Shown: piece after piece, positions 27,715-57,115 of the stretch | Position numbering within the stretch: the first letter of the stretch is position 1 | How the letters are laid out: each line of letters starts with the position of its first letter | Source: Mercenaria mercenaria | Taxonomy: Eukaryota | Assembly (NCBI RefSeq): GCF_021730395.1 | Contig: NC_069364.1 | Span: 83,403,972-83,467,971, forward strand | Direction: 5' to 3' | Length of the DNA stretch: 64,000 nucleotides | The notes under the pieces: model-generated | Told to the model about the DNA's origin: nothing | What the model saw: only the letters and a program-made list of their open reading frames with translations | Databases searched by the model: none | Position numbers and translations under genes: made by a program

Positions 27715-29897
27715 AACAAGAGGGTCATTGACCCTAAAGCGCTCACCTGTGTAATAAGGCTTCAAGTATGTTTATGTAACATTCTGGTACAAGTACAAAG
27801 TTAGATTTCTTCTGCTAGCATAATAAAAGTATATACATGTTACAAACATTTTTGAACTTAGGGCAATAATTTTAACAATTATGGTAGACAGTACAACTCT
27901 GATATCACATGCCAAATATCAAGACTCTAACTATTATTGATTCAGAGAAGAAGATTTTTAAAATTTCTTATATATAAGCCTACAGTTAGTACATGTCACG
28001 CACAGGGGCATGGACATTTTTTACCTTAGGGCAATAATTTGGACAATTATGGTAGAGAGTCACACCCTTATATCACATGCAAATATCAAAGCTCTAGAGA
28101 GAAAGATTTTAAAAGTCTAATAGCTGAAAACCTATTTCTAACCAAAAAGACCCATATGTTCAATGAACTAGAACCATTTGAACAACTTTAAAAGAGGGCT
28201 ACCCAGAGATCATTTGTGTAAAGTTTCATCGAAATCCATTCAGTGGTTTTGGAGGAGATGTGTTGATGAAAAATGACCACGCCCTCTGGCGGTCATGTTT
28301 TTTAACGAATCAAAAAATTTTGAACATTATTTGTAGAAGGTCACACAAGGACCATTAAATTTTGTGTAAAATTATTTCAAAATTGGGCTAACAGTTTTCT
28401 ACAAGAAGTTTCTCCTATATACAAATAGGCAAAAGTGACCACGCCCCCTGGCAGCCATGTTTTTTGACAAATCAGAATAATTTGAACAATCTTGGGAAAG
28501 GGTCACACAAGGACCATTTGTGTAAAAAAATTTTAAAATGGGGCCAACAGTTTCACACAAGAAGATTTTTAATGTTTCCACTATATACATATACAGGGAA
28601 AAGTAACCACGCCCTCTGACACCTATGTTATTTGACAAATCAAAATAATTTGAACAATCTTGGCACACAAGGATCATTTGTGTAAAATTAGTTTAAAATC
28701 GGGCCAGCAGTTTCACACAAGAAGATTTTTAAAATTTCTACTATATACATATAGGGAAAAGTGACTACTAGACAATGCATCATACCAAATATCAAAAGCC
28801 TAGGTCGTATGGTTTCAGACAAGAAGATTTTTTAAGCTTTTTTCTATATAAGTCTATATAAAACTTGGGACCCCCAGGGCAGGGCCTCTTTTCACCCAAA
28901 GGGTACAATTTGAACAAATTTGGATGAGGACCATAAGACAATCCTACAAACCAAATATCAAAGGTCTAAGTGTTGTGGTTTCAGACAAGAAGATTTTTAA
29001 ACTTTTTTTCCTATATAAGTCTATGTAAAACTTGGGACCCCCGGGACAGGGCCACATTTGACCCTAGAGGGATAATTTTAGAACAATCTTGGTAGAGGAC
29101 CACTAGATGATGCTACACACCAAATATCAAAGCCCTAGGCCATGTGGTTTTGTACAAGAAGATTTTCAAAGTTTTCCCTATATAAGTCTATATAAAGCAT
29201 GTGACCCCCGGGGCAGGGCCATATTTGACCCTAGGGGGATAATTTGAATAATCTTGGTAGAGGACCACTAGATGATGCTACCCACCAAATATAAAAGCCC
29301 TAGGCCATGTGGTTTTGTACAAGAAGATTTTCAAAGTTTTCCCTATATAAGTCTATATAAAGCATGTGACCCCCAGGGCAAGGCCATATTTGACCCTAGG
29401 GGGATAATTTGAATAATCTTGGTAGAGGACCACTAGATGATGCTACATACCAAATATCAAAGCCCTAGGCCATGTGGTTTTGTACAACAAGATTTTCAAA
29501 GTTATCCCTATATAAGTCTATATAAACCATGTGACCCCCTGGGTGGGGCCATATTTGACCCTAGGGGGATAATTTGAACAATTTTGGTAGAGGACTACTA
29601 GAAGATGCTATACATCAGATATCAAAGCCCTAGGCCTTGTGGTTTTGGACAAGAAGATTTTTAAAGTTTTTCCTTTCGGTTGCCATGGCAACCAGAGTTC
29701 TGCTTGGAATTCAATTCTTTTAATAAATTTTGTAGAGCTTCACCCAAGGAACATTCCTGTGAAGTTTGGATGAAATTGGCCTAGCGGTTTATGAGGAGAT
29801 GTCGTTTAAAGTAAAAGTTTACGGACAGACAACGGACGACGGACGAAGTGCGATCACAAAAGCTCACCTTGTCACTCCATGACAGGTGAGCTAAAAA
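27715..29897 (+). mobile_element. HINE. 5' CAAGAGGGTCATTGACCCTAAAGCGCTCACCTGTG, arrays of two related monomer families (125-155 bp, 27900-29700), a conserved pre-terminal segment (29690-29820), a microsatellite, and the terminus ..GCGATCACAAAAGCTCACCTTGTCACTCCATGACAGGTGAGCTAAAAAC
   Basis: Both termini are read. Monomers include ..AAGAAGATTTTCAAAGTTTTCCCTATATAAGTCTATATAAA.CATGTGACCCCC.GGGCAGGGCCATATTTGACCCTAGGGGGATAATTTGAA.AATCTTGGTAGAGGACCACTAGATGATGCTACA.ACCAAATATCAAAGCCCTAGGCC.TGTGGTTTTG.ACAAG. Confidence 0.55.
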
Positions 29898-30214
29898 CCT
29901 GGTTAAAATTGAGAGAGACCTTTACACTGATGCTACATACCAAGTTCGATGAATATCCACTAAGGTGTCCATGAGAAAAAGACGTTTAAAGGTGTTTCTA
30001 TCTTAAGCTCCGGTAGCCCCTTATAGTGACATAACAGACCAAGTTTGATGAAGATCCATCAAGTGGTTCATTAGTTGTTTTGAGGTACTTCCTTTTTCAA
30101 TGGAGCCAAGTGCCCTCACTAGAAGAAAATCTATAGATCAAGTTTGTGGAGTTATAACATGCATTTTCAGAGAAAAAGATGTTTCAAAATGATATCCATT
30201 TCTGCTTGAGGATC

Positions 30215-31362
30215 GCTCACCTGAGTAATATGAGCTACATGTTTCAAATGTCAAACTGATGCTAAATATAAGAAAGTAGGTCAGTCTGGTCACTGAATTT
30301 CAGTTTTAAGATCGGTGTGCAAAACTGTATATGTCATTCAAATTTCAAGGCTGTATCTCAAAAACAAGAAAGTAGGTCAGTAGGTTAAGGTCACAGTCAA
30401 GTGACCCCTAATTACTTGGGGTCATCAGGTAATTATAATTAAACAGTCTAGGAAATATGATCTCATAACTTTTGAAGTATTTTTTTCCTATATAACTCAT
30501 ATAAAAACTAAGTGACCCTCTGGGGCCTCTTTTCACCCCAGGGGCATAATTTGAACAATCTTGTTAGAGAGCCACTAGGCAATGCTACATACCAAAATAT
30601 CAAAAGCCTAGGCCTTGAACTTTCAGACAAGAAGATTATTAAAAGTTTTTTCCTATATAAGTCTATGTGTGGGGCCTCTTTTCACCCCAGGGGCATAATT
30701 TGAATAATTTTGGCAGAGGACCGCAAGGCGATGCTACATACCAAAGGCCTAGGTCTTATGGTTTCAGACAAGAAGATTTTTTAAGTTTTTTCCTATATAA
30801 GTCTATGTAAAACTTGGGACCCCCGGGGTGGGGCCTCTTTTCACCCCAGGGGCATAATTTGAACAAACTTTATAGAGGACTATTAGATGATGTCACATGC
30901 CAAATATTGAGGCTCTATGCCTTGTGGCTTTGGACAAGAAGATTTTCAAAGTTTTCCCTATATAAGTCTATGTAAACCATGTCATCCCCCAGGGCAGGGC
31001 CATATTTGACCCTAGGGGGATAATTTGAACAATCTTTGTAGAGGACCACTAGATGATGCTACATGCCAAATATAAAAGCCCTATGACCTGTGGTTTTGGA
31101 CAAGAATATTTTTAAAGTTTTTCCTTTCGGTTGCCATGGCAACCAGAGTTCCGCATGGAACTCAATTCTTTGAATAATTTTGAAAGGGGGCCACCCAAGG
31201 ATCATTCCTGTAAAGTTTGGTGTAATTCTGCCCAATAGTTTTCAAGAAGATTTGTTTTTAGAAAATGTTGACGGACGCACGACAGAAAACACACGACAGA
31301 CATTGAACTGTCACAAAAGCTCACCATGAGCCTTTCGCTCAGGTGAGCTAAAAAGTGATTCA
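30215..31362 (+). mobile_element. HINE-like element. A partial 5' motif (..GAGGATCGCTCACCTGAGTAAT) at 30215, arrays of the ATATTTGACCCTAGGGGGATAATTTGAA family, the conserved pre-terminal segment TTTCCTTTCGGTTGCCATGGCAACCAGAGTTC.GC.TGGAA.TCAATTCTTT.AATAATTTTG, and the terminus ..GAACTGTCACAAAAGCTCACCATGAGCCTTTCGCTCAGGTGAGCTAAAAAG
   Basis: Same architecture as the element at 27715-29897. The pre-terminal segment matches 29670-29760. Confidence 0.45.
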
Positions 31363-44953: not shown

Positions 44954-45340
44954 CTTGGCAAATACAGAAGTTGATATTTCAGAATGTGCCACGACGATAA
45001 AATTATCCTCTTTTCCACTAAACGAAAATGTTTACTCAACCAGAATCCTTAAAAGTACTTGCAATACAGATATGTGTGGTGACCAAAATACTGTGATGAC
45101 CAGAATACTAAGTCAATATCTTTAGGATGAATAAAATTCAAATACATTAAAACATGATCTTTTGTGACATTTCAGTATAAAAAAAAACACATTTAACTAC
45201 GAACATACTTCATGTGGAAATAGAGACAAAACTGTATAATGTAATGCCAATCCAGCTTTGTGTGACCACCAGAATGGTTTGCCTCTGGGATATATTTTAT
45301 AGTTTCATTAAATATTACAGAATGAGCCAAGTCACCATAC

Positions 45341-45486
45341 CTCCCCTCAGTCTTAACACAAGATGCAACATTGACTCATGCTGGATGTTATAGTCCTGCA
45401 GTGATCTACCATCTTCTAACTGCTTTCCAGCAAATATCAATCTCTGTTGATCTGGTGGTATTCCTTCTTTGTCTTGAATCAGTGCC
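45341..45486 (-). CDS. Coding exon encoding the C-terminal two-thirds of a ubiquitin-like domain, [49 protein letters not shown]. It ends in phase 1 after RLRGG.
   Basis: Acceptor CATTTTGCAG| and donor GGGGAG|GTATGG. It is about 90% identical to the invariant ubiquitin segment [48 protein letters not shown], with 4 substitutions, so it is a ubiquitin-like domain rather than canonical ubiquitin. It overlaps the listed ORF 45315-45551. Confidence 0.6.
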
Positions 45487-46406
45487 TGCAAAATGCAATC
45501 ATTGAAGTCACATGGCATTGTGGTCATATGGCAACTTTCCAGCTTAAACATTTGAGGAAAATCCCAGGGGACCCTTTACAGGGCCGCTGGGTAAAACCAA
45601 AAGCCTTTCACAAACAAACAGTATAGTTTCTTCAACAAAAATATCAGTGGTAACCTCAACCATTCAGCCTTATATAATTCATCAAAAACAAACACATAAC
45701 TATAACTATGAACCAATATAAATTCTTTCAACCTAGTACCATTAATGCTCCCAGTGAGTCTATTGTCACCTTTTATTTTTTGTGTTTACCTTAGTAAGAT
45801 GCTATCATAATTATTTTTAAATAAAAAAAACATTTTTCATTTACCTATAAAACCAATGAAATGTTATAGCAAATGTACAAACACAGTCATGATAACAAAT
45901 ATATTTAAGGCCAATCCACCTATTATTAGCTTGCAAACAAAAGCTTTAGCAAAATTTTCTGAGATGAAAAAGGGACATAAATTTGCATGAGTATTGTTAA
46001 CTAGAGCTATGAAACTTGCCATATGAGGTCATATTGAAATGCCGGGAGACATACATGCAAAACTTTCACATAATTTCTATATTAAAAGGGGACATGATTT
46101 TGATAAAATAAAAAGAGTTATGTAGCTTGTCCTATGAGTTTATCTCATAAGGCCAAACACAAATGTTGAAAAAATTTGACCTAGTGGTTTCTGACAAACC
46201 TGTTTACAACCGAGTAAAACTTATTATGCAGACGCCAACACCAACAAAAGGGTGGCAACAAGACTGTAATATTTGAAAAGTTTAGTTGCACTAAAAAATT
46301 GGTAACACTTTAATTTAACATGATAACTAACACTATATATACTATCATAAAATGTGTAGTTAACATTTGGCTATATCAACAGATTTCAAATCAGAAAAAT
46401 CAATAC

Positions 46407-46619: not shown

Positions 46620-47560
46620 AAGACTTACTGACTAGCTCAAGGTCAAATTTCATTTCCGTACACAACACTGTGCATGTGGTCCAAATTCAAAAGCTGTAGC
46701 TTGAGATGTGAAAGTAGGTCACTAGATCAATTTCAAGGACAAAGTTCTTTGTACACAAAACTATGCATGTGCATCAAGTTTGAAGGCTGTAGTTTGAGAA
46801 ATTTGAAAGTAGGTCACTAGGTCAATCTTAAGGTCACAGTTTATTTTGGTACAAAAAACTATGCAAGTGGTCCAAATTTGAAGGCTGTAGCTTGAGAAAT
46901 GTGAAAGTAGGTCACTAGGTCAATGTCAAAGTTTGTTTCGGTACACAATCCTATGCATGTGGTCTAAATTTGAAGCCTGTAGCTACAGAAATGTGAAAGT
47001 AGGTCACTAGGTCAATCTTAAGATCAAAGTTCATTTCAGTACACAAAACTAAGCAAGTGGTCCAAATTTGAAGGCTGTAGCTCGAGAAATGTGAAAGTAG
47101 GTCACTAGGTCAAAATCAAGGTCAAATTTTATTTCGGAACACAGAACTATGCATGTGGTCCAAATTTGAAGCCTGTACCTTCAAAAATGTAAAAGTAGGT
47201 CACTAGGTCAATGTAAAGGTCAAAGTTTGTTCGGTACACAAAACTATGCAAGTGGTCCTAATTTGAATTTGAAGGCTGTAGCTCGATAAATGTGAAAGTA
47301 GGTCACTAGGTCAAAATCAATGTCAAATTTTTTTGACACAGAACTATGCATGTGGTCCAAATTTGAAGCCTGTACCTTCAAACATGTGAAAGTAGGTCAC
47401 TAGGTCAATGTAAAGGTCAAAGTTTGTTTCGGTACAAAAAACTAAGCATGTGGTCCAAATTTGAAGGCTGTAGCTTGAGAAATGTGAAAGTAGGTCACTA
47501 GGTCAAAATCAAGGTCAAATTTCATTTCGGAACACAAAGGTCAACTCATGTCAAGGTTCA
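46620..47560 (+). repeat. Tandem array of about eight copies of a 121-bp monomer (..AAAGTAGGTCACTAGGTCAAT.T.AAGGTCAAAGTT..TTTCGGTACACAAAACTATGCA.GTGGTCCAAATTTGAAGGCTGTAGCT.GAGAAATGTGA..)
   Basis: Direct repeats are read. They are diverged at the 5' side and homogeneous toward 47500. Confidence 0.65.
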
Positions 47561-48405
47561 TCTTGCCTCTCAAAACCATACATGTGGTCCAAATTTGAAT
47601 ATTGTAGGTTACTGACAAGAAGATTTTAAAAGCTTTTCCCTATATAAGTCTATATGAACCATGTGACCCCCGGGGCGGGGCCATATTTGACCCTAGGGGG
47701 ATAATTTGACCAAACTTGGTAGAGAACCACTAGATGATGCTACATAACAAATATCAAAGCCCTAGGTTTTGTGGTTTGGGCAAGAAGATATTCAAAGTTT
47801 TTCCCTATATAAGTCTATGTAAACCATGTGACCCCCGGGACGGGGCCATATTTGACCCTAGGGGGATAATTTGAAAAATCTTAGTAGAAGACCACTAGAT
47901 GATGTCACATACAAAATATCAAAGCTCTAGGCCCTATGGTTTTGAACAAGAGGTTTTTCAAAGTTTTTCCCTATATAAGTCTATATAAACCATGTGACCC
48001 CCGGGGCGGGGCCATATTAGACCCCGGGGAAATAATTTGAATCATCTTGGTAGAGGACCACTAGATGATGCTTCATACCAAATATCAAAGCTCTAGGCTC
48101 TGTGGTTTTGGACAAGAAGATTTTCAAAGTTTTTCCCTATATAAATCTATGTAAATTATAGAAATAAACAAAGGGCCATAACTCACTAAAAAATTGTTGA
48201 ACCAGTCTGATTTTCAGAGGGACACAACTAGAGTACCAATACATCATTCTGACAAAGTTTGGTCAAAATGCCCCTGGTAGTGTCTGAGGAGATGCGATAA
48301 CGAGAAATTGTTAACGGAAGGACGGACGGACGGACAGACGGAAGGACGTCGGACCACAGACGCAGAGTGATTTGAATAGCCCACCATCTGATGATGGTGG
48401 GCTAA
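47560..48405 (+). mobile_element. Hairpin-terminated element 3' portion. About four copies of the 155-bp monomer (ATATTTGACCCTAGGGGGATAATTTGA family), a unique pre-terminal segment, a (GGACGGAC)n microsatellite (48318-48352), and the terminal hairpin TAGCCCACCATCTGATGATGGTGGGCTA (48378-48405)
   Basis: Read directly. The hairpin has a perfect 12-bp stem. Confidence 0.5.
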
Positions 48406-48418
48406 CAATGTGTGTGTC

Positions 48419-48680
48419 CAAATAAGATAAATTATTTTCAATTAAAAATAATTTGATTTATTTATTCAAGAAATACTTGTTATGCTCGTTGCCATGGTCA
48501 CACGGTTATCTCTCGGTCTTTTCTTATAACTGGTTCCCGTCTTTCTGACTAATACGAATTACACATAATTACTGGGCCGAGAACAATCTTAATAACGGCT
48601 TATAAAAGCAAAAAACACGTGCAGCCTTTCTCACTTACGTCGTAGTCTACCTGTAAAGAACATCGAACTTACAACTTTTC
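48419..48680 (+). repeat. Ngaro-like element terminal repeat A1 (A2 copy at 54104-54365)
   Basis: 262-bp direct repeat, 259 of 262 identical. Confidence 0.8.
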
Positions 48681-48729
48681 TTCTGCTACGTATATATATA
48701 TATATACTAGTAAATCTACTCGGATTCTA

Positions 48730-49890
48730 ATGCCGCGTGGGCGTGTTAGACAGCGAGGCGGCAGGGCTAGGGCAGGAAGGCCAGCCAGGGCAAACAGAAA
48801 TGCCGACGGCCAGCAGAATGAAGCAGGCGGCCAGCAGAATGAGGCAGAACGAGGCAATAACCATCCAAACACCCGCGGGCAGAAACGAAGAGCCGATGAC
48901 CTTGAGCACGCTGAAAGGACACCGGCACGTGGTCTGGCAGAGCCATCAGATATAGATGACGGAGGCAATATACTGTTACAGGAAAATGCCGGTGGGTCTA
49001 ATTTTATTGATTTTGAACAGGTTTTTCGTAGTTCAGGTCTTATGTCTTGTAACGGTAATGAGACTAGTTCAAGGTCAAATAGTACTTCTAATATAGGATT
49101 TGACAATGGACACGACAAAAATGTACCTCTGCCACCCCGTCAGATCAATGAAACGTGTCAGAATGCCTCCTTTAATCATAACTTTCCATCCGTTCGTTTA
49201 TCAAATGATGATTTGACTGCACATGTACCATCATCGTTAAAACAACAAATCTGTCGTGGAGAATACGTTAATCTGGCCTTACTCTTAAAAGGGGCTATCG
49301 AACTGTCTGAATTTTGTAAGGGTAGTGTTTTCAAACTCTCGGCGGATGGCCACATTGAGTCATCTCATAAAGAGTGCAAAGATAAAATTACATCTAGAGA
49401 AAAATGGACCAATGCATTTATAATTTATGCTTCCATTTACCTTCCGACACATAGTGATAAAGTTCACGAGTTACTTCACTATATGTTTAACATATGGGAC
49501 TGTGCAATGCGCCAAGGGGGCAACGGGTGGAGAATTTATGATGAACAATTTCCCCTTTGCCAGGCTATATGTCCGTCCCCATGGTCACAAACAAATAACG
49601 AACTTTGGTGGCGATGTATACAGGTCAAAGATAATCAGTCTGCAAATCAGTCAGTTATAAATCCTCTCAGGTACACGTGCCATGATTTTAACAGAGGTAG
49701 TTGTTTCTGGTCAAACTGTAAATATCCTCATATATGCGCAAAATGTTTTGCACCACATCCTGAGGTCACCTGTTCCCAGTCCGGTTCTTCAGGTCAAGGT
49801 CAAATGACAAGCCCTCAGTTTAATTTTCGTGGCAGGGGCTTTCGCCGACCGTTCAGAGGACCTAAACGAGGTCAACCAAGAAAACAGTAA
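48730..49890 (+). CDS. ORF1, a putative Gag-like protein of 386 aa with a basic N-terminus and a Cys/His cluster (CHDFNRGSCFWSNCKYPHICAKCFAPH)
   Basis: It is the first ORF of the element and overlaps ORF2 in a different frame, as is typical of DIRS-order elements. It was not recognised by specific motif beyond the zinc-knuckle-like Cys/His spacing. Confidence 0.5.
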   Translation: MPRGRVRQRGGRARAGRPARANRNADGQQNEAGGQQNEAERGNNHPNTRGQKRRADDLEHAERTPARGLAEPSDIDDGGNILLQENAGGSNFIDFEQVFRSSGLMSCNGNETSSRSNSTSNIGFDNGHDKNVPLPPRQINETCQNASFNHNFPSVRLSNDDLTAHVPSSLKQQICRGEYVNLALLLKGAIELSEFCKGSVFKLSADGHIESSHKECKDKITSREKWTNAFIIYASIYLPTHSDKVHELLHYMFNIWDCAMRQGGNGWRIYDEQFPLCQAICPSPWSQTNNELWWRCIQVKDNQSANQSVINPLRYTCHDFNRGSCFWSNCKYPHICAKCFAPHPEVTCSQSGSSGQGQMTSPQFNFRGRGFRRPFRGPKRGQPRKQ

Positions 49891-51586
49891 AACTGTAAGC
49901 TTTAACTCAACAAACAGCCCATCAGTTCAACAGCTCACCAATTTTGATATTTCTAATTTGGCAAAATCACCAGTAAAAGTGGAAGCCTTGAAACAATATG
50001 CACTCTTGTACGAAACCAGTGAATCTAAGTTTTTACTAGACGGTTTTACGAAAGGATTTTCCATTCAGTACACAGGTCCTCGCTTACCACGAGATTCAAA
50101 TAATTTGCGTTCTGTTACACTCAGTCCGGAAATAATAAAATCTCAAATTAATAAAGAGTTAGAAGCAGGAAGAATAGCTGGTCCATTTGTTCATCGCCCA
50201 TTTCCTAATTTAATAGTTTCACCGATAGGCTTAGTTCCTAAAAAAACACCGGGAGAATTCCGAATGATTCATCATTTGTCACATCCCCCTGGCGGTTCAA
50301 TTAATGACTTTATTGACCCAGATTTATGCTCTGTCCAATACACTAGCTTCGACAAGGCAGTTAAGTTAGTTCAAGATCTAGGACGAAATTGTAAACTTTT
50401 CAAGTCGGACATTAAAAGTGCATATCGTTTAATACCGATTCACCCCGATGATTTTGAATTACTGGGATTTTGCTATGATGGTCATTTTTATTTTGACAAA
50501 GCGCTCCCGTTTGGGGTATCAATAAGCTGCATAACTTTTGAAAGGTTTGCTAGGTTTCTTGAATTTTGTGTTAAATTAAAACTACAGTCAGATAGCTTGA
50601 TACACTATTTAGATGACTTTCTAGGGGGAGACAAATCTGTTGAATCATGTACTCGTGCTTTAGAAATTTTTAAAAGTACAATGTCTGAACTTGGTGTGCC
50701 TTTAGCGCTCGACAAAACTGAAGGCCCTACAGAGGTTTTGATCTTTTTAGGCCTAGAACTAGATTCAAACCATATGACGGTAAAAATTCCTATAGCAAAA
50801 ATGCAGGAGGTTATACAAAAAATCGAAGAAATTCTTTCACGAAATAAAACAACATTAAAGAAAATGCAGTCTCTCATTGGGTCATTAAACTTTTGTTGCA
50901 GAGCCATAGTAGTGGGTAGGCCTTTTATACGCCGACTAATAAACTCAGTTTGTGGTCTCACGAAGCCTTTTCATCGCATTCGAATTAAAAAAGAGATACG
51001 GCTTGATTTGGCAATGTGGTTAGTTTTTCTAAAAAAATTTAACGGTATCTCTGTTTTTCATGACCGTTATTGGATCACGAACACCGATACAGAGTTATAC
51101 ACTGATAGTGCGGGTGGCAAGGGATTAGGCTTTGGTATATACTTCAAAGGCCATTGGTGTTCGGCGAAGTGGCCGGACACGTGGCACACGTGCGGCATCA
51201 CGTCAGATATAACAGTACTGGAATTGTTCCCGATTTTGGTAGCTATATTCATTTGGGGAAAGGATCTGATGAATAAAAAAATAAGATTTAACAGCGATAA
51301 TATGGCTGTGGTTCACATTCTTAACAAATTATCCTCTAAATCAGAACGAGTTATGTGCATTGTCAGGATATTAACGTTGAGATGTTTTAACTTGAATATT
51401 TTAATCAAAGCCTCTCATGTCCCGGGTTGTAGCAATGAAATCTGCAACGCTTTATCTCGCTTTCAGTTGAACAAGTTCAGAGAATTAGCTCCAGACGCAG
51501 ACGTCAGCCCCCATTCAATACCAACTTTTCTATGGGACATCTTCGATCTAGAGCTAGACAACTGCTTCTGTCAGGGATTTCAATGA
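49829..51586 (+). CDS. ORF2, reverse transcriptase plus RNase H, 585 aa
   Basis: RT motifs IVSPIGLVPKK, FRMIHHLSHP, FKSDIKSAYRLIPIHPDDFELLGF, ALPFG and HYLDDFLGG are present. The RNase H region has YTDSAGGKGLGFG..ELFPILVA..NSDNMAVVHIL..ASHVPGCSNEICNALSR. Confidence 0.85.
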   Translation: MAGAFADRSEDLNEVNQENSKTVSFNSTNSPSVQQLTNFDISNLAKSPVKVEALKQYALLYETSESKFLLDGFTKGFSIQYTGPRLPRDSNNLRSVTLSPEIIKSQINKELEAGRIAGPFVHRPFPNLIVSPIGLVPKKTPGEFRMIHHLSHPPGGSINDFIDPDLCSVQYTSFDKAVKLVQDLGRNCKLFKSDIKSAYRLIPIHPDDFELLGFCYDGHFYFDKALPFGVSISCITFERFARFLEFCVKLKLQSDSLIHYLDDFLGGDKSVESCTRALEIFKSTMSELGVPLALDKTEGPTEVLIFLGLELDSNHMTVKIPIAKMQEVIQKIEEILSRNKTTLKKMQSLIGSLNFCCRAIVVGRPFIRRLINSVCGLTKPFHRIRIKKEIRLDLAMWLVFLKKFNGISVFHDRYWITNTDTELYTDSAGGKGLGFGIYFKGHWCSAKWPDTWHTCGITSDITVLELFPILVAIFIWGKDLMNKKIRFNSDNMAVVHILNKLSSKSERVMCIVRILTLRCFNLNILIKASHVPGCSNEICNALSRFQLNKFRELAPDADVSPHSIPTFLWDIFDLELDNCFCQGFQ

Positions 51587-52423
51587 ATTCAAGGCTAACA
51601 TATAATACTGCCTTTCGGGCATTTGAAAATTTTAGGCGGTTATACAATCTTTCAGACAGTTGGCCTATACCAGAACAACAAATCACTTTATTTATGGCTT
51701 ATTGTTTCGAAAAAGGGTTGTCACCCAAGACAATCACGAGGTATATAGCTGGGCTAAATTATTTTCACAAACTTTCTGGATATTATGATATAACCCAGGT
51801 TTTCATTGTTAATAAATTACTAGAGGGTTGCCATAGGAACCGTATCACACATGATAACAGAGCCCCACTAACTCTGCCTATTTTGACATCTATTTGCAGA
51901 GTTCTAAGAGAAATATGCTTCAATGCGTATGAAACAAAACTGTTTACTTCGCTCTTTACTTTAGCATACTTTGGATTGTTCAGGGTTAGCGAATTAGTTG
52001 TCTCCTTTAGGGGACAATTTGATGGGCCCATTAAACGATCAGATTTGTTCGTGATTGATAACCAATATCTTACAATTCAACTTCGGCATAGTAAAACAAA
52101 CCAAAGGGGAAAACCGACTAAAACTACCCAGAGAATCTGGGCCTGTCTGTGCAGTGCAAGCATTAACAGATTTCTTGGCCGTAAGACCAAAAAATGAAGG
52201 AATATTATTTTGTCATCAAGAAGGCACCCCAGTTACCAGAACTCAATTTTCAGCCATTCTGTATAAATGTCTGAGTAAAAATCAAATTACTGGTACATTT
52301 AAATCGCATAGCTTTAGAATTGGTCGGGCTACAGACCTGGCAACTAGGGGTTATTCAGCGAGTGTAATTATGAAACTTGGTAGATGGAAATCTAATTGCT
52401 ATAAAGTATACATCCGAACGTAA
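51532..52423 (+). CDS. ORF3, tyrosine recombinase, split over two frames (51532-52197 and 52055-52423) by an apparent one-nucleotide frameshift near 52105-52120
   Basis: YR hallmarks are LFTLAYFGLFRVSELV, IQLRHSKTNQRG, then after the frame change ..SGPVCAVQALTDFL..HSFRIGRATDLA..GRWKSNCYKVYIR, which gives the R..H..R..Y catalytic signature. The join falls in the GGGGAAAACC run. Confidence 0.75.
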
Positions 52424-52584
52424 TTCTACAGTAAAGAGATGTTTTCCCACTCTTAACTGTATCAGCGGACAACATTTTTTAAAAGTGCATTGAAGTCAGT
52501 TCTTCCTGGTAGTTATTCCGTTTAAAGCGAATTTTCCACATTTAAGGTATTCTTGTCAATTCCATCTAATAACTATTTGTAGAT

Positions 52585-53139
52585 GTGTGGGTCCTGGGAG
52601 ATTCAATACCGTTCTGGGCTGGTAAACGAGCAGCAGACACCGGTAAACCCAACCTTTCGTTACCCGATATAACTATAGCTTGGTGGGGAATAAGCGGACT
52701 TCGATGGACATCATTTCGCCATTCAGTACAGACTCAAGTATTACTGTCATCGCCACCAAGGGCTATCATCTTACATTTAGGTGGTAACGATTTGACAAGT
52801 TTATCTTCTATCGAGCTAAGGGAGTTAATAGAGACAGAAGTGAAATATCTACGCGATGCCTTCCCCGAGACAATTATCATTTGGGTAGATATTTTACCAA
52901 GGAGGGTCTGGAGGGGGGCCTGTAATCTCAAAGCTATTGACGTCAAACGCAAACGAATAAATAGATCGGGCCGGATTATTACAAGTCGGTCTGGCAGGAG
53001 TGATATAGTGAGCCCAGATATTGATACGGCTACTAATTTTTTCAGATCTGACGGGGTCCATTTAAATGAGGTGGGGTTGGAGTTTTATCTGTACTATTTG
53101 AAATCTGCCATAATAAAAAATCTCTGTGCGTCTCAATAA
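52585..53139 (+). CDS. ORF4, an SGNH/GDSL-family hydrolase-like protein of 184 aa
   Basis: Block I VLGDSI (GDS), block III LHLGGNDL (GGND) and block V DGVHLN (DxxH) occur in the correct order and spacing. Its position after the YR ORF matches the hydrolase-like ORF reported in some Ngaro elements. Confidence 0.65.
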   Translation: MWVLGDSIPFWAGKRAADTGKPNLSLPDITIAWWGISGLRWTSFRHSVQTQVLLSSPPRAIILHLGGNDLTSLSSIELRELIETEVKYLRDAFPETIIIWVDILPRRVWRGACNLKAIDVKRKRINRSGRIITSRSGRSDIVSPDIDTATNFFRSDGVHLNEVGLEFYLYYLKSAIIKNLCASQ

Positions 53140-53171
53140 TAATTTTGGGGGATAAATTGAAATTTATTGTG

Positions 53172-54110
53172 GCGGTAAAATTTTTATTGGCCGGAAGGTG
53201 ACCAGGCGTTGCAGTTTCTATGAAGTAAATTTAACAAGTTATTGTTATTTACAATTTCCAATTTCGCTTACTTCGGAATATGGGCGTGACTTCTCTCCTC
53301 GATGGCATTCTATTTTGCGTTCAAGAGGAGACATAGCCGTCCGTATTCGGATTTTTCTATCTTATTTCGCAGGTCACTACTTTATGTAAGCTGTTATTGT
53401 TACTCTGAGTCACCAGGTTATTTCAATGGTTGTCAACTGGACTGTTGCTTCTGGTTACTTGTTTACTTATTGTTGTCGACCCGAATGTTGCTTCGGGTCA
53501 CTAAGTAGTGGTAAACTCGAATGTTGCTTCGGGTTTGTTTGTAGTCTGTCGTTGACCTGAATGTTGCTTCGGGTCACTAGGTCTGGCCCATGTAGTTTTG
53601 GTAAGGCCTAGTCGACGTGTTTGCTGCCAGTAACGCATTACAGGTTCTACCGGCATACCTCGTATCGAGCTGGTAGTGTGATTATGGGTCCTTTGCTTTC
53701 AAGGTTGGTACCGATTCACGGTACGGTCAACTTGGAAGCTGGGGTCTATGACTGCACGATCAGTGGGACTCCTTTGGTAATGCGACACGTAGCAATTGAT
53801 GCCATTAGTAATATTTTCAAAGGTGACTCGGCGACCGGGATCCTTTTGGCAATTTCACTTGTAATGTTTGGCACGCTTGCAGGTCCCTTCCGGTCGATGA
53901 GCTAGCTACCAAATTTGAGCAGCCGACACAACCAAACTTATTAATTTGAAATGATATGAATATACATGTAATTCGTAAGCAATATTTCAAGGTTTTATTA
54001 TCACGTACCTATATCTATTTGAATATATTGTCGGTACAGATTGGTGACATGTTTAATAAATTTAGAGAAGGCTGTATGTATTGTTTTTTATTTCGAGTAA
54101 TATCAAATAA
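53172..54110 (+). repeat. Ngaro-like element repeat B1 (B2 copy at 55000-55935). It contains three tandem GAATGTTGCTTCGGGT hairpin-forming motifs (53470-53585).
   Basis: Roughly 939-bp direct repeat, about 99% identical. It is noncoding, and the ORFs listed inside it are repeat artefacts. Confidence 0.8.
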
Positions 54111-56264
54111 GATAAATTATTTTCAATTAAAAATAATTTGATTTATTTATTCAAGAAATACTTGTTATGCTCGTTGCCATGGTCACACGGTTATCTTTCG
54201 GTCTTTTCTTATAACTGGTTCCCGTCTTTCTGACTGATACGAATTACACATAATTACTGGGCCAAGAACAATCTTAATAACGGCTTATAAAAGCAAAAAA
54301 CACGTGCAGCCTTTCTCACTTACGTCGTAGTCTACCTGTAAAGAACATCGAACTTACAACTTTTCCCCGCCCGCCTCAGCCCGCAAAAGCTACCATATTT
54401 TTGATTAATAAGATTGTTTCACCTATACTATACCATGTGATAACTATTTTTGGTCAGGAATTGCTGTTGGTTGTATATATTTTCAGGATACCATATTTCA
54501 AATTTCTGTTGTATCAATGTTGAATTCTGACGGTGTCACCAACTCATGTACCCAGAGCCATAAGACGAATGCAATTCAGATGTGAAAACAGTATATTGTT
54601 ATGAAGACTGTGATTTTATCAAATAAACGGTTACAGGCGCCTTAGCGGTACATGGAATTAATGCTGATGTGAACAGTCATTTGTAATATACTTATTTAGT
54701 GTGAACACTGATTCATTGGAAGTGATTTGTCAGTTAATGATCATAGTGCTCGGGTATTTGTTTGTTCTTATTACACATTTTATGTGCATTTATATCGTGT
54801 GACATTTTGTGCTAGCTTAATGGGACAATTATTTGACATTACATGTATACTAAGCAGCATAATTCTGGACATTTAGTGTATTTACTTCATGAAGACGTAA
54901 TTCTATGCCTAAATAATATAAATGTATGTATATAAAGAGTCGGACAGTCTATCTTAAGGTTTCATTCATATATGTCGCTCTATTTATATGTTGTATATTG
55001 CGGTAAAATTTTTATTGGCCGGAAGGTGACCAGGCGTTGCAGTTTCTATGAAGTAAATTTAACAAGTTATTGTTATTTACAATTTCAAATTTCGCTTACT
55101 TCGGAATATGGGCGTGACTTCTCTCCTCGATGGCATTCTATTTTGCGTTCAAGAGGAGACATAGCCGTCCGTATTCGGATTTTTCTATCTTATTTCGCAG
55201 GTCACTACTTTATGTAAGCTGTTATTGTTACTCTGAGTCACCAGGTTATTTCAATGGTTGTCAACTGGACTGTTGCTTCCGGTTACTTGTTTACTTATTG
55301 TTGTCGACCCGAATGTTGCTTCGGGTCACTAAGTAGTGGTAAACTCGAATGTTGCTTCGGGTTTGTTTGTAGTCTGTCGTTGACCTGAATGTTGCTTCGG
55401 GTCACTAGGTCTGGCCCATGTAGTTTTGGTAAGGCCTAGTCGACGTGTTTGCTGCCAGTAACGCATTACAGGTTCTACCGGCATACCTCGTATCGAGCTG
55501 GTAGTGTGATTATGGGTCCTTTGCTTTCAAGGTTGGTACCGATTCGCGGTACGGTCAACTTGGAAGCTGGGGTCTATGATTGCACGATCAGTGGGACTCC
55601 TTTGGTAATGCGACACGTAGCAATTGATGCCATTAGTAATATTTTCAAAGGTGACTCGGCGACCGGGATCCTTTTGGCAATTTCACTTGTAATGTTTGGC
55701 ACGCTTGGTCCCTTCCGGTCGATGAGCTAGCTACCAAATTTGAGCGGCCGACACAACCAAACTTATTAATTTGAAATGATATGAATATACATGTAATTCG
55801 TAAGCAATATTTCAAGGTTTTATTATCACGTACCTATATCTATTTGAATATATTGTCGGTACAGATTGGTGACATGTTTAATAAATTTAGAGAAGGCTGT
55901 ATGTATTGTTTTTTATTTCGAGTAATATCAAATAATGCTTCATTTACACAGAAAGATATCTAGCCATATCACAAAGGTATTTCTGTTTTTTGCTCTTGCA
56001 GCCCCTAAAAGGTGCTTAAGTGTCCCAAATTTGAATAAATTTGAGAGAGGACCTTACAATGATGCTACAGACAAAATTTGACGAAGATCCATCAAGCGGT
56101 TCATGAGAAGAAGTGGTTTAAAGGTTTTTTCTAATTTTAGCCCTAGCGGCACCTTAAAGGGGCCAAGTGCCCTCATTTAAACAATTTTTGGGAAAGCATC
56201 TTACAAAATTATTCTACAGACAAAGTTTCATGAAGATCCATTAAGCGGTTCATGGCCAGACAAA

Positions 56265-57115
56265 ACAAGAGCACTGCCTTGCGGGTGCTGACGCTCATCT
56301 GATTTTTTTTGTATAATAGAAATATTGTCCTACCTATGATTTTCTAAGTCTAAAAAGGGCCATCATTCTTGCAAAAAGCTGGATAGAGTTATGTTTCTTG
56401 ATGTACAGCATTCGCTTATGATGATGAAAAACTGTTGCAAGTTTTAAAGCAATAGCTTTGATGGTTTATGAGAAAAGCTGACTTAAACATAATACTCAAC
56501 CAAGAAAACTGATTTTCTAAGTCCAAAAGGGGTAATAACTAAAAGCAGGACGGAGTTATGTTTCTTGATGTACAGGGTCAGCTTATGATGGTAAACAAGT
56601 GTTGCAAGTTTCAAAGCAATAGCTTTGATAGTTTATGAGATAAAGTTGACCTAAACATAAAACTTAACCAAGAAATCTGATATTTTCTAAGTCCAAAAGG
56701 GGCCATAAATCTTGCAAAAAGCAGGATGGAGTTATGTTTCTTGATGTACAGGGTCAGCTTATGATGGTGAACAAGTGTTGCAAGTTTTAAAGCAATAGCT
56801 TTGATAGTTTAGGAGAAAAGCTGACCTAAATATAAAACTTAACCAAGAAAACTGATTTTCTAAGTCCAAAAGGGGAAATAATTCTTGCAAAAAGCAGGAT
56901 GGAGTTATGTTTCTTGATGTACAGGGTCTGCTTATGATGATGAACAAATGTTGCAAGTTTCAAAGCAATAACTTTGATAGTTTTGGAGAAAAGCTGACCT
57001 AAACATAAAACTTAACCAGGCAACGCCGACGCCGACACAGACGCCGACGCCGATCAAGTGATGACAATAACTCATCATTTTTTTTCAAAAAATCAGATGA
57101 GCTAAAAATGACCTA
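56265..57115 (+). mobile_element. Complete small HINE. 5' CAAGAGCACTGCCTTGCGGGTGCTGACGCTCATCTGA, about five copies of a 145-bp monomer (..AAAAGCTGAC.TAAACATAAAACTTAACCAAGAAA.CTGATTTTCTAAGTCCAAAAGGGG..AATAA.T...GCA..A.GGA.GGAGTTATGTTTCTTGATGTACAGGGTC.GCTTATGATGGT.AACAA.TGTTGCAAGTTT.AAAGCAATAGCTTTGATAGTTT..GAGA), a (GCCGAC)n microsatellite (57030-57060), and the terminus ..AATCAGATGAGCTAAAAA
   Basis: The 5' and 3' termini carry the complementary 11-mers GCTCATCTGAT and ATCAGATGAGC, a subterminal inverted repeat that parallels GCTCACCTG and CAGGTGAGC in the main family. Confidence 0.55.

Follow-up and report, generated by a model that had tools for sequence, protein, structure and literature searches.

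An SGNH esterase gene in a Ngaro-like retrotransposon of the hard clam and its proposed expression by splicing to gag

The fourth open reading frame (ORF4) of a retrotransposon in the hard clam Mercenaria mercenaria encodes a hydrolase of the SGNH/GDSL type, and raises the questions of how a frame of 184 codons with no ATG is translated and what an esterase does in a retroelement. The element spans about 48419-55935 of a 64,000-nucleotide stretch of contig NC_069364.1 (assembly GCF_021730395.1; hereafter the window, whose positions are used throughout) and comprises gag, reverse transcriptase (RT), tyrosine recombinase (YR) and SGNH genes with split direct repeats. The reading favoured here, with a probability of roughly three in four, is that ORF4 is an accessory esterase gene of a Ngaro-like element, expressed through an env-like splice from gag, its product being a short-acyl or lipid esterase that works beside Gag.

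Identity and active site of the ORF4 product

The domain on which the argument turns is the following:

52583-53139, forward strand: ORF4, or proposed exon 2, the SGNH (GDSL) esterase domain including the stop codon (Pfam, profile, AlphaFold2 and Foldseek evidence)

The ORF listing places a 184-amino-acid frame at exactly 52585-53139(+), and residue numbers below refer to this frame (52585-53136). The initial annotation of the locus had assigned it to the SGNH/GDSL hydrolases on three ordered motifs, all of which were located, VLGDSI at residues 3-8, LHLGGNDL at 63-70 and DGVHLN at 156-161. The chance resemblance for which that annotation had allowed gave way to profile matches and to motifs that are conserved across copies. 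The Pfam comparison that it proposed returned a match to Lipase_GDSL_2 over nearly the full length (residues 4-164, profile positions 2-175 of 178; E=3.2e-6), with a single-sequence score of 28.2 bits that lies below the curated gathering cutoff of 32.9; this is a formal shortfall only, given the strong profile and fold evidence, and many of the homologues have a precomputed PF13472 match.

A search of a large protein collection found 102 homologues down to E=1e-7, the best being from M. mercenaria with others from Ruditapes, Dreissena, Mya, Mactra and Tegillarca, while vertebrate homologues (frogs, an amphisbaenian, gecko and fish) were found directly by sequence at 28-36% identity. A family profile was built from 61 of the 102 and used both against the PDB and for the AlphaFold2 alignment. 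Its best PDB match was 4c1b, the esterase of the ZfL2-1 ORF1 protein (ORF1p; E=1.2e-10), aligned end to end including GDSI, hVGtND and DGlH, with the next match at about 1e-6 and PAF acetylhydrolase Ib (PAF-AH Ib) at about 1e-4. The AlphaFold2 model of ORF4 (pLDDT 97.3, pTM 0.92) has five strands alternating with helices, in agreement with the three-layer alpha/beta/alpha SGNH fold around a parallel five-stranded sheet, the SGNH domain taking up the 184 residues with no insertion. Foldseek matched this model in the PDB to SGNH esterases only (probability 1.0, TM 0.71-0.77), led at near-equal scores by two acetyl-specific esterases, a bacterial sialate O-acetylesterase (7pzh, E=1.9e-7) and PAF-AH Ib. 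ORF4 is confirmed as a genuine SGNH/GDSL hydrolase domain of compact fold, far beyond chance.

The catalytic and oxyanion-hole residues are Ser7, Gly38, Asn68, Asp156 and His159, adding the Asp to the Ser, Gly, Asn and His that had been recognised before. In the alignment of the 61 homologues (28-69% identity to the query) Asn68, Asp156 and His159 are invariant, and Ser7, Gly38, Gly66, Gly67 and Asp69 are kept in at least 90%. In block I, Ser7 of VLGDSI aligns with the catalytic GDSI of 4c1b; in block II, Gly38 (GISGLRW) aligns with a Gly of 4c1b (fcfpGarv) that is taken to be the oxyanion-hole Gly165 of ZfL2-1 (PMC3905857), the residue numbering being unchecked; block III supplies Asn68 in LGGNDL and block V both Asp156 and His159 in DGVH. 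By alignment, the Ser-His-Asp triad and the oxyanion-hole Gly and Asn are shown to be intact. Ratios of nonsynonymous to synonymous divergence (dN/dS, Nei-Gojobori) between SGNH copies were 0.06-0.46 for pairs with measurable dS, usable values coming only from closer pairs in other families as the window copy is saturated at synonymous sites against its relatives L005, L009 and L015. Purifying selection on the catalytic residues is shown at the sequence level across mollusc and vertebrate copies, in keeping with the earlier suggestion that selection maintains the enzyme, and because residue conservation holds though identity falls to 28% a working active site is supported.

The SGNH domain might instead be kept as a non-catalytic lipid-, RNA- or protein-binding module, like the OSK domain of Oskar, which is listed as a non-catalytic SGNH protein (PMC3905857). 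The liposome binding of the ZfL2-1 esterase is independent of its active site and its turnover is low (PMC3905857), and GYS or EDS stands in place of GDS in some of the retrocopies described below. However, in 61 sequences from molluscs to reptiles each of the five catalytic and oxyanion residues is either invariant or kept in at least 90%, which a structural role alone would not call for, and the altered motifs occur in intronless copies that otherwise look decayed, which leaves a purely binding role improbable.

A proposed splice from gag to the esterase

As first drawn, the 184-amino-acid ORF was itself the protein. Its listed start is a GTG that is read as Met only under the bacterial table, the frame opens just two codons 5′ of this GTG after two stop codons, and none of the 184 codons is ATG. 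With no ATG and with stops just upstream the ORF is in all likelihood not translatable alone, and an internal start could not yield the enzyme because the catalytic Ser lies as early as residue 7. The most likely start of the coding exon is 52583, as the second exon of a spliced mRNA with these further parts:

48730-48991, forward strand: proposed exon 1 of the SGNH mRNA, from the gag ATG through 87 codons plus one base, with donor CCG|GTGGGT

48992-52582, forward strand: proposed 3591-nt GT...AG intron holding the rest of gag, RT and YR, with acceptor context ttgtcaattccatctaataactatttgtag|AT

The acceptor reads ...ctatttgtAG|AT, with exon 2 starting just before block I, and both sites are in phase 1, the split codon G+AT across the junction giving Asp. 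The spliced coding sequence (48730-48991 joined to 52583-53139) is 819 nt long and encodes 272 amino acids. This product differs at two residues from RefSeq XP_053405693.1 (272 amino acids) and has the identical junction, the RefSeq protein consisting of the first 87 Gag residues of the element joined to DVWVLGDS.... At least ten more Gnomon models from diverged paralogous families (Mercenaria, Ruditapes) have the same basic N-terminus and D-[VI]-W junction, the shared architecture being MPRGR...RGQKR.A[DE][DE]L[ED]...D[VI]W[VI]LGDS. From these sequences the free-standing ORF appears not to be the likely protein, but the 3′ exon of a gag-N-terminus::SGNH mRNA, and it is strongly inferred that ORF4 is expressed as env is, from a subgenomic mRNA translated from the gag ATG.

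The env mRNA of avian leukosis/sarcoma virus carries the first six gag codons. As in retroviral env splicing, the proposed clam donor lies in the start of gag, the acceptor precedes a 3′ accessory gene and the gag ATG is used, with unspliced RNA serving in both cases for Gag, Pol and the genome. The clam arrangement would differ from that of the avian retrovirus in that 87 rather than six gag codons are shared, the product is a soluble enzyme rather than a glycoprotein and integration is by YR.

The splice signals were compared across 25 distinct intron-type loci, drawn from the window, from contigs found via the homologues and from a metagenome scan. A phase-1 AG following a pyrimidine-rich tract lies no more than 32 nt 5′ of block I in 24 of the 25, and in 16 the Trp codon follows the acceptor at a distance of exactly 5 nt (yAG|AT NNN TGG). 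In 20 of the 25 loci no other AG lies closer on the 5′ side of block I, against one third expected (binomial P=2e-6, ignoring relatedness). The peptide 5′ of the acceptor is unconserved, and usually contains a stop and lacks an ATG. Phase-1 G|GT donors are found early in gag, just 5′ of a conserved (I/V)DFE motif, as follows:

L009: donor CCG|GTGAGA, at the position homologous to the window donor

L002: donor CGG|GTAAGA

L001: donor AGG|GTAAGA

L010: donor CAG|GTAATT

Four distinct intronless gagN::SGNH copies (L012/L014, L013, L026 and L038) were found on contigs without RT or YR, from JGI 3300022205 and ENA ERZ27296354. L014 sits in 6.9 kb of AT-rich genomic DNA and is 91.4% identical to L022, a relative that bears RT, YR and SGNH genes, with the identity starting exactly at the predicted acceptor, cag|ATGTATGG, and no homology between the two 5′ of it; a break of this kind marks a spliced RNA that was reverse-transcribed. 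L012/L014 is still intact, although its GDS is replaced by GYS, and the two versions sampled differ from each other mostly in amino-acid changes, while L013, L026 and L038 carry stops, deletions or frameshifts. All four look like retrocopies of spliced RNA and are the most telling evidence for the splice. The comparison of acceptors and donors across loci is independent of gene prediction.

These copies bear on the alternative that ORF4 is translated directly from unspliced full-length RNA, by the GTG at 52585, an internal ribosome entry site, reinitiation, or frameshifting or readthrough from YR, with the RefSeq models as artefacts. The listed start is indeed a GTG, three relatives (L002, L007 and L034) have an in-frame ATG 5′ of block I and so are translatable without splicing, and Xenopus Ngaro families have been reported with all ORFs overlapping (PMC9210276). 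In the window copy, however, ORF4 has no ATG, is preceded by three long ORFs, at a distance of about 3.9 kb from the 5′ end, and is separated from the YR stop by 160 nt with several stops in its frame. The gagN|SGNH junction is exact in the intronless genomic copies, where homology to the full-length relative ends at the acceptor, a finding difficult to account for unless splicing takes place, and the phase-1 acceptor and pyrimidine tract are kept whereas the upstream peptide is not. Direct translation is possible in the few relatives with an upstream ATG, but for the window copy it is quite unlikely.

Several points weigh against expression by splicing and against the role proposed for the product. 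In the window family the splice rests on predicted RefSeq models rather than transcripts, and the window donor, GTGGGT, is a moderate match to the consensus. Donors in distant families are ambiguous, as there are several candidate GGT codons in phase 1; L007 and L008 may splice after gag codon 2, where their best phase-1 donor lies, so that families may differ widely in how much of Gag the esterase shares. The upstream ATGs of the three relatives and the overlapping Xenopus ORFs belong here too, and expression strategy may differ between Ngaro lineages. The intactness of the triad was read from aligned residues. The activity, substrate and role of Ngaro esterases are argued by analogy, and even in the case of ZfL2-1 a part in membrane targeting is speculative (PMC3905857).

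A wider proposal is that Ngaro elements of bivalves, and possibly of other animals, share a conserved env-like splice that yields a Gag-N::esterase, and that the spliced RNA is occasionally reverse-transcribed, seeding retrocopies of which at least one is intact; this is held tentatively, at a little under even odds. Such spliced expression is undescribed in the literature searched, although Goodwin & Poulter 2004 or Poulter & Butler 2015 may have it. In the DIRS-1 paper, 'spliced' refers to an artificial marker intron.

Likely function and related esterases

Under the splicing reading, the phase-1 donor 87 codons into gag (G|GTGGGT) would be joined to the phase-1 acceptor ttgtAG|AT before block I, removing the rest of gag, RT and YR as a 3.6-kb intron to give a 272-amino-acid protein whose first 88 residues would be the Arg-rich Gag N-terminus, which resembles a nuclear localisation signal. 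This shared N-terminus would send the esterase to the same place as Gag. There, by analogy, the enzyme may act in the cytosol or nucleus on short-acyl (acetyl-type) or lipid substrates, and may assist the assembly of ribonucleoproteins or particles, or their trafficking on negatively charged membranes, as proposed for ZfL2-1 ORF1p. The N-terminal 88 residues of the product have a pI of 10.3 and the SGNH domain one of 9.6, with a family median net charge of +7, and no signal peptide or hydrophobic segment was found in ORF4 or the 272-amino-acid product (maximum 19-residue Kyte-Doolittle hydropathy 0.88). A cytosolic or nuclear short-acyl or lipid esterase targeted together with Gag is the best guess that the comparison with related enzymes allows.

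The haemagglutinin-esterase (HE) proteins of viruses belong to the SGNH-type esterases. For ORF4, whose top Foldseek match is the sialate O-acetylesterase 7pzh, a comparable role could be entertained, as a secreted or luminal enzyme that destroys receptors or modifies glycans and serves steps between cells or involving particles. The viral enzymes are type I membrane glycoproteins with a signal peptide, lectin domain and anchor, whereas all three are absent from ORF4 and from the spliced product, the N-terminus of which is strongly hydrophilic. Foldseek scores cytosolic PAF-AH Ib practically as high as 7pzh, and the closest solved sequence relative is an L2 retrotransposon esterase. Because the product has no hydrophobic segment and a basic, Arg-rich N-terminus, a secreted HE-like or glycan-modifying role is very improbable, and the glycan remodelling once suggested for the enzyme is disfavoured as far as the secretory pathway is concerned.

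The description of an esterase as unusual cargo for a retroelement was overstated. A Hydro-SGNH ORF 'with no proven function' has been described after YR in Ngaro retrotransposons (PMC9210276 and PMC7192593, citing Goodwin & Poulter 2004), esterases occur in the ORF1 proteins of CR1/L2/RTEX long interspersed nuclear elements (LINEs), with a crystal structure and biochemistry (PMC3905857), and GDSL/SGNH esterases have been described in the Vesta long terminal repeat (LTR) elements and Athena Penelope-like elements of bdelloids (PMC5408684). The cargo is neither new nor unusual because it is a published Ngaro feature that is also known from other retroelement classes.

Among these, the ZfL2-1 ORF1p esterase (4c1b, PMC3905857) is the best-scoring solved structure and, like the clam protein, is retroelement-encoded and basic with no signal peptide. 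Its esterase activity is weak, it binds acidic phospholipids and liposomes, and it is the only experimental functional model (PMC3905857). It differs in being part of ORF1, 5′ of pol, with a dimerising coiled coil attached, and in belonging to an element without gag or YR, whereas the clam esterase is the last gene and would gain its N-terminus from gag by splicing; the clam enzyme is not of CR1/L2 type, and the likeness is at the domain level only. The Vesta ORF3 and Athena esterases (PMC5408684), likened to the clam esterase by description, are also encoded by an extra 3′ ORF with intact catalytic residues; they have no transmembrane or coiled-coil domains, and an auxiliary rather than env-like role has been proposed for them (PMC5408684). 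They differ in class, belonging to integrase-bearing LTR elements and Penelope-like elements. PAF-AH Ib (1wab, 1es9 and 3dt6) shares the compact SGNH fold (TM 0.71-0.74, profile about 1e-4), but is a cellular, cytosolic, acetyl-specific enzyme and LIS1 partner with only 17-19% identity to the clam esterase. Some of the gecko homologues are named after PAF-AH Ib in UniRef.

The host element and what the gene structure means

The element around the splice and the esterase is composed as follows:

48419-48680, forward strand: split direct repeat A1, 262 bp, 98.9% identical to A2

48730-49890, forward strand: ORF1, gag-like, 386 amino acids, 53% identical to the gag of L009

49829-51586, forward strand: ORF2, reverse transcriptase, 585 amino acids, Pfam RVT_1 at E=9.4e-14, 73% identical to the RT of L009

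51532-52423, forward strand: ORF3, tyrosine recombinase, Pfam Phage_int_SAM_1 at 6.7e-5 and Phage_integrase at 3.4e-10

53172-54110, forward strand: split direct repeat B1, 939 bp, 99.1% identical to B2

54104-54365, forward strand: split direct repeat A2, sharing its initial 7 nt (aaataag) with the end of B1

54366-54999, no strand: unique sequence of 634 bp between A2 and B2 (blastn)

55000-55935, forward strand: split direct repeat B2, with AATAAA at 55880-55885

ORF4 is thereby the fourth ORF, downstream of the recombinase, as the initial annotation had placed it. The repeats run A1-[ORFs]-B1-A2...B2 with B1 adjoining A2. Because an RT and, in place of a DDE integrase, a YR are combined with this layout and there is no room for a methyltransferase, the element is Ngaro-like (DIRS order), an assignment made from domains and repeats with reference to published Ngaro layouts (PMC8547959, PMC9210276). 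No methyltransferase-like domain, such as sets DIRS1-like and PAT-like elements apart, was found, as judged by Pfam and available space, the YR ORF beginning within the last RT codons, and Pfam detected no RNase H at E<=1. The 634-bp spacer departs from the canonical A1-[ORFs]-B1A2B2; it has no blastn similarity to the interior of the element or to the remaining window and could be a later insertion or a family feature.

The described Hydro-SGNH ORF of Ngaro elements (for example Xenopus DIRS-53_XT and DIRS-54_XT, PMC9210276) is likewise a fourth ORF after gag, RT/RH and YR, in elements with split direct repeats and no methyltransferase. The clam case differs in its mollusc (venerid) host and in an ORF4 that does not overlap YR, has no ATG and is preceded by a splice acceptor, as well as in the extra 634 bp between A2 and B2; in addition, the GDS of the clam is GHS in vertebrate copies.

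The order gag-RT-YR-SGNH is also found in L001, L002, L005, L009, L010, L015 and L022, and RT-YR-SGNH linkage recurs on many divergent contigs from different samples. This linkage bears on the reading that a host gene, or a motif match due to chance, happens to adjoin a retrotransposon. NCBI does annotate the spliced models as ordinary 'uncharacterized protein LOC...' genes, but their exon 1 is the element's own gag start and ORF4 lies between the recombinase and B1, inside the split direct repeats. With the conserved linkage and the profile and fold evidence, this explanation was rejected as having next to no likelihood.

The window copy carries ORF3 in two frames (51532-52197 and 52055-52423) with a frameshift near 52110-52118, and the intact single-ORF recombinases of L009, L010 and L001 (277-301 amino acids) align over both. 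Because its recombinase is frameshifted the copy is probably non-autonomous, unless the frameshift is an assembly error; its spliced SGNH reading frame is intact despite the frameshift. A TATA-like box (tataaaag) lies at 48601-48608 within A1, about 125 nt 5′ of the gag ATG, and a second AATAAA, inferred by offset from the signal in B2 and not read directly, lies near 54055 in B1. The gag-like ORF1 has an Arg-rich N-terminus and a C-terminal Cys/His motif and matched no Pfam family. The motif (49700-49800, YTCHDFNRGSCFWSNCKYPHIC..., C-x7-C-x4-C-x3-H) is also kept in the gag of L001 and L002, and resembles a CCCH zinc finger more than a retroviral CCHC knuckle.

The A repeat at its start, the B repeat at its end and the two junctions with flanking DNA all carry the hexamer AAATAA (48413-48425, 54099-54110 and 55925-55941), the junctions reading gtgtcc|aaataag... 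and ...atatcaaataa|tgcttc, of which the latter is the probable 3′ end of the element. Such sharing is what recombination via YR between a circle bearing a B-A junction and an AAATAA target, without target-site duplication, would be expected to leave. No further copies of the element were found in the 64-kb window by blastn or tblastn; the M. mercenaria genome paper gives a count of about 1,750 for Ngaro elements (PMC8905726).

Satellite-like tandem repeats flank the element on both sides (46640-47610, 47610-48155, also at about 28763-31124, and 56337-57054) with periods of about 98 bp, 165 bp and 173 bp, the 165-bp family recurring about 17 kb upstream. A short ORF at 45315-45551(-) contains the C-terminal half of a ubiquitin-like sequence and is probably a ubiquitin gene fragment or exon. 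In L007 and L008 a gag ORF follows the SGNH gene, which suggests that the element was assembled in tandem or in circularly permuted form. L001 (GCA_016842945.1, JAEPBY010000262.1) is a 6.3-kb contig in a metagenome-assembled genome (MAG) of 'Candidatus Thiodiazotropha taylori' with gag, RT, YR, SGNH and splice signals; NCBI labels its product (protein P0065) a bacterial SGNH/GDSL hydrolase, yet the element is of the animal Ngaro-like type, and the contig is probably lucinid clam host DNA binned with the symbiont. These records flag two annotation problems, RefSeq listing transposon products as host genes and a symbiont MAG product being labelled a bacterial SGNH hydrolase.

The esterase itself is an already-known and still unexplained accessory gene of several unrelated retroelement classes, to which the clam adds a new mollusc case. 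Taken alone this copy adds little; the useful result is a concrete, testable gene structure, with splice sites defined to the base that can be checked in public clam RNA-seq, and the protein to take into biochemistry is the 272-amino-acid Gag-N-terminus::SGNH fusion rather than the 184-amino-acid ORF. The spliced architecture and its retrocopies are a helpful refinement beyond the known cargo that can be put to the test, possibly one already in the literature. If the splice is general, YR retrotransposons would, like retroviruses, control an accessory protein by the proportion of genomic to subgenomic RNA, and the shared N-terminus would suggest delivery of the esterase to the Gag compartment, narrowing the hypotheses for what esterases do in retroelements.

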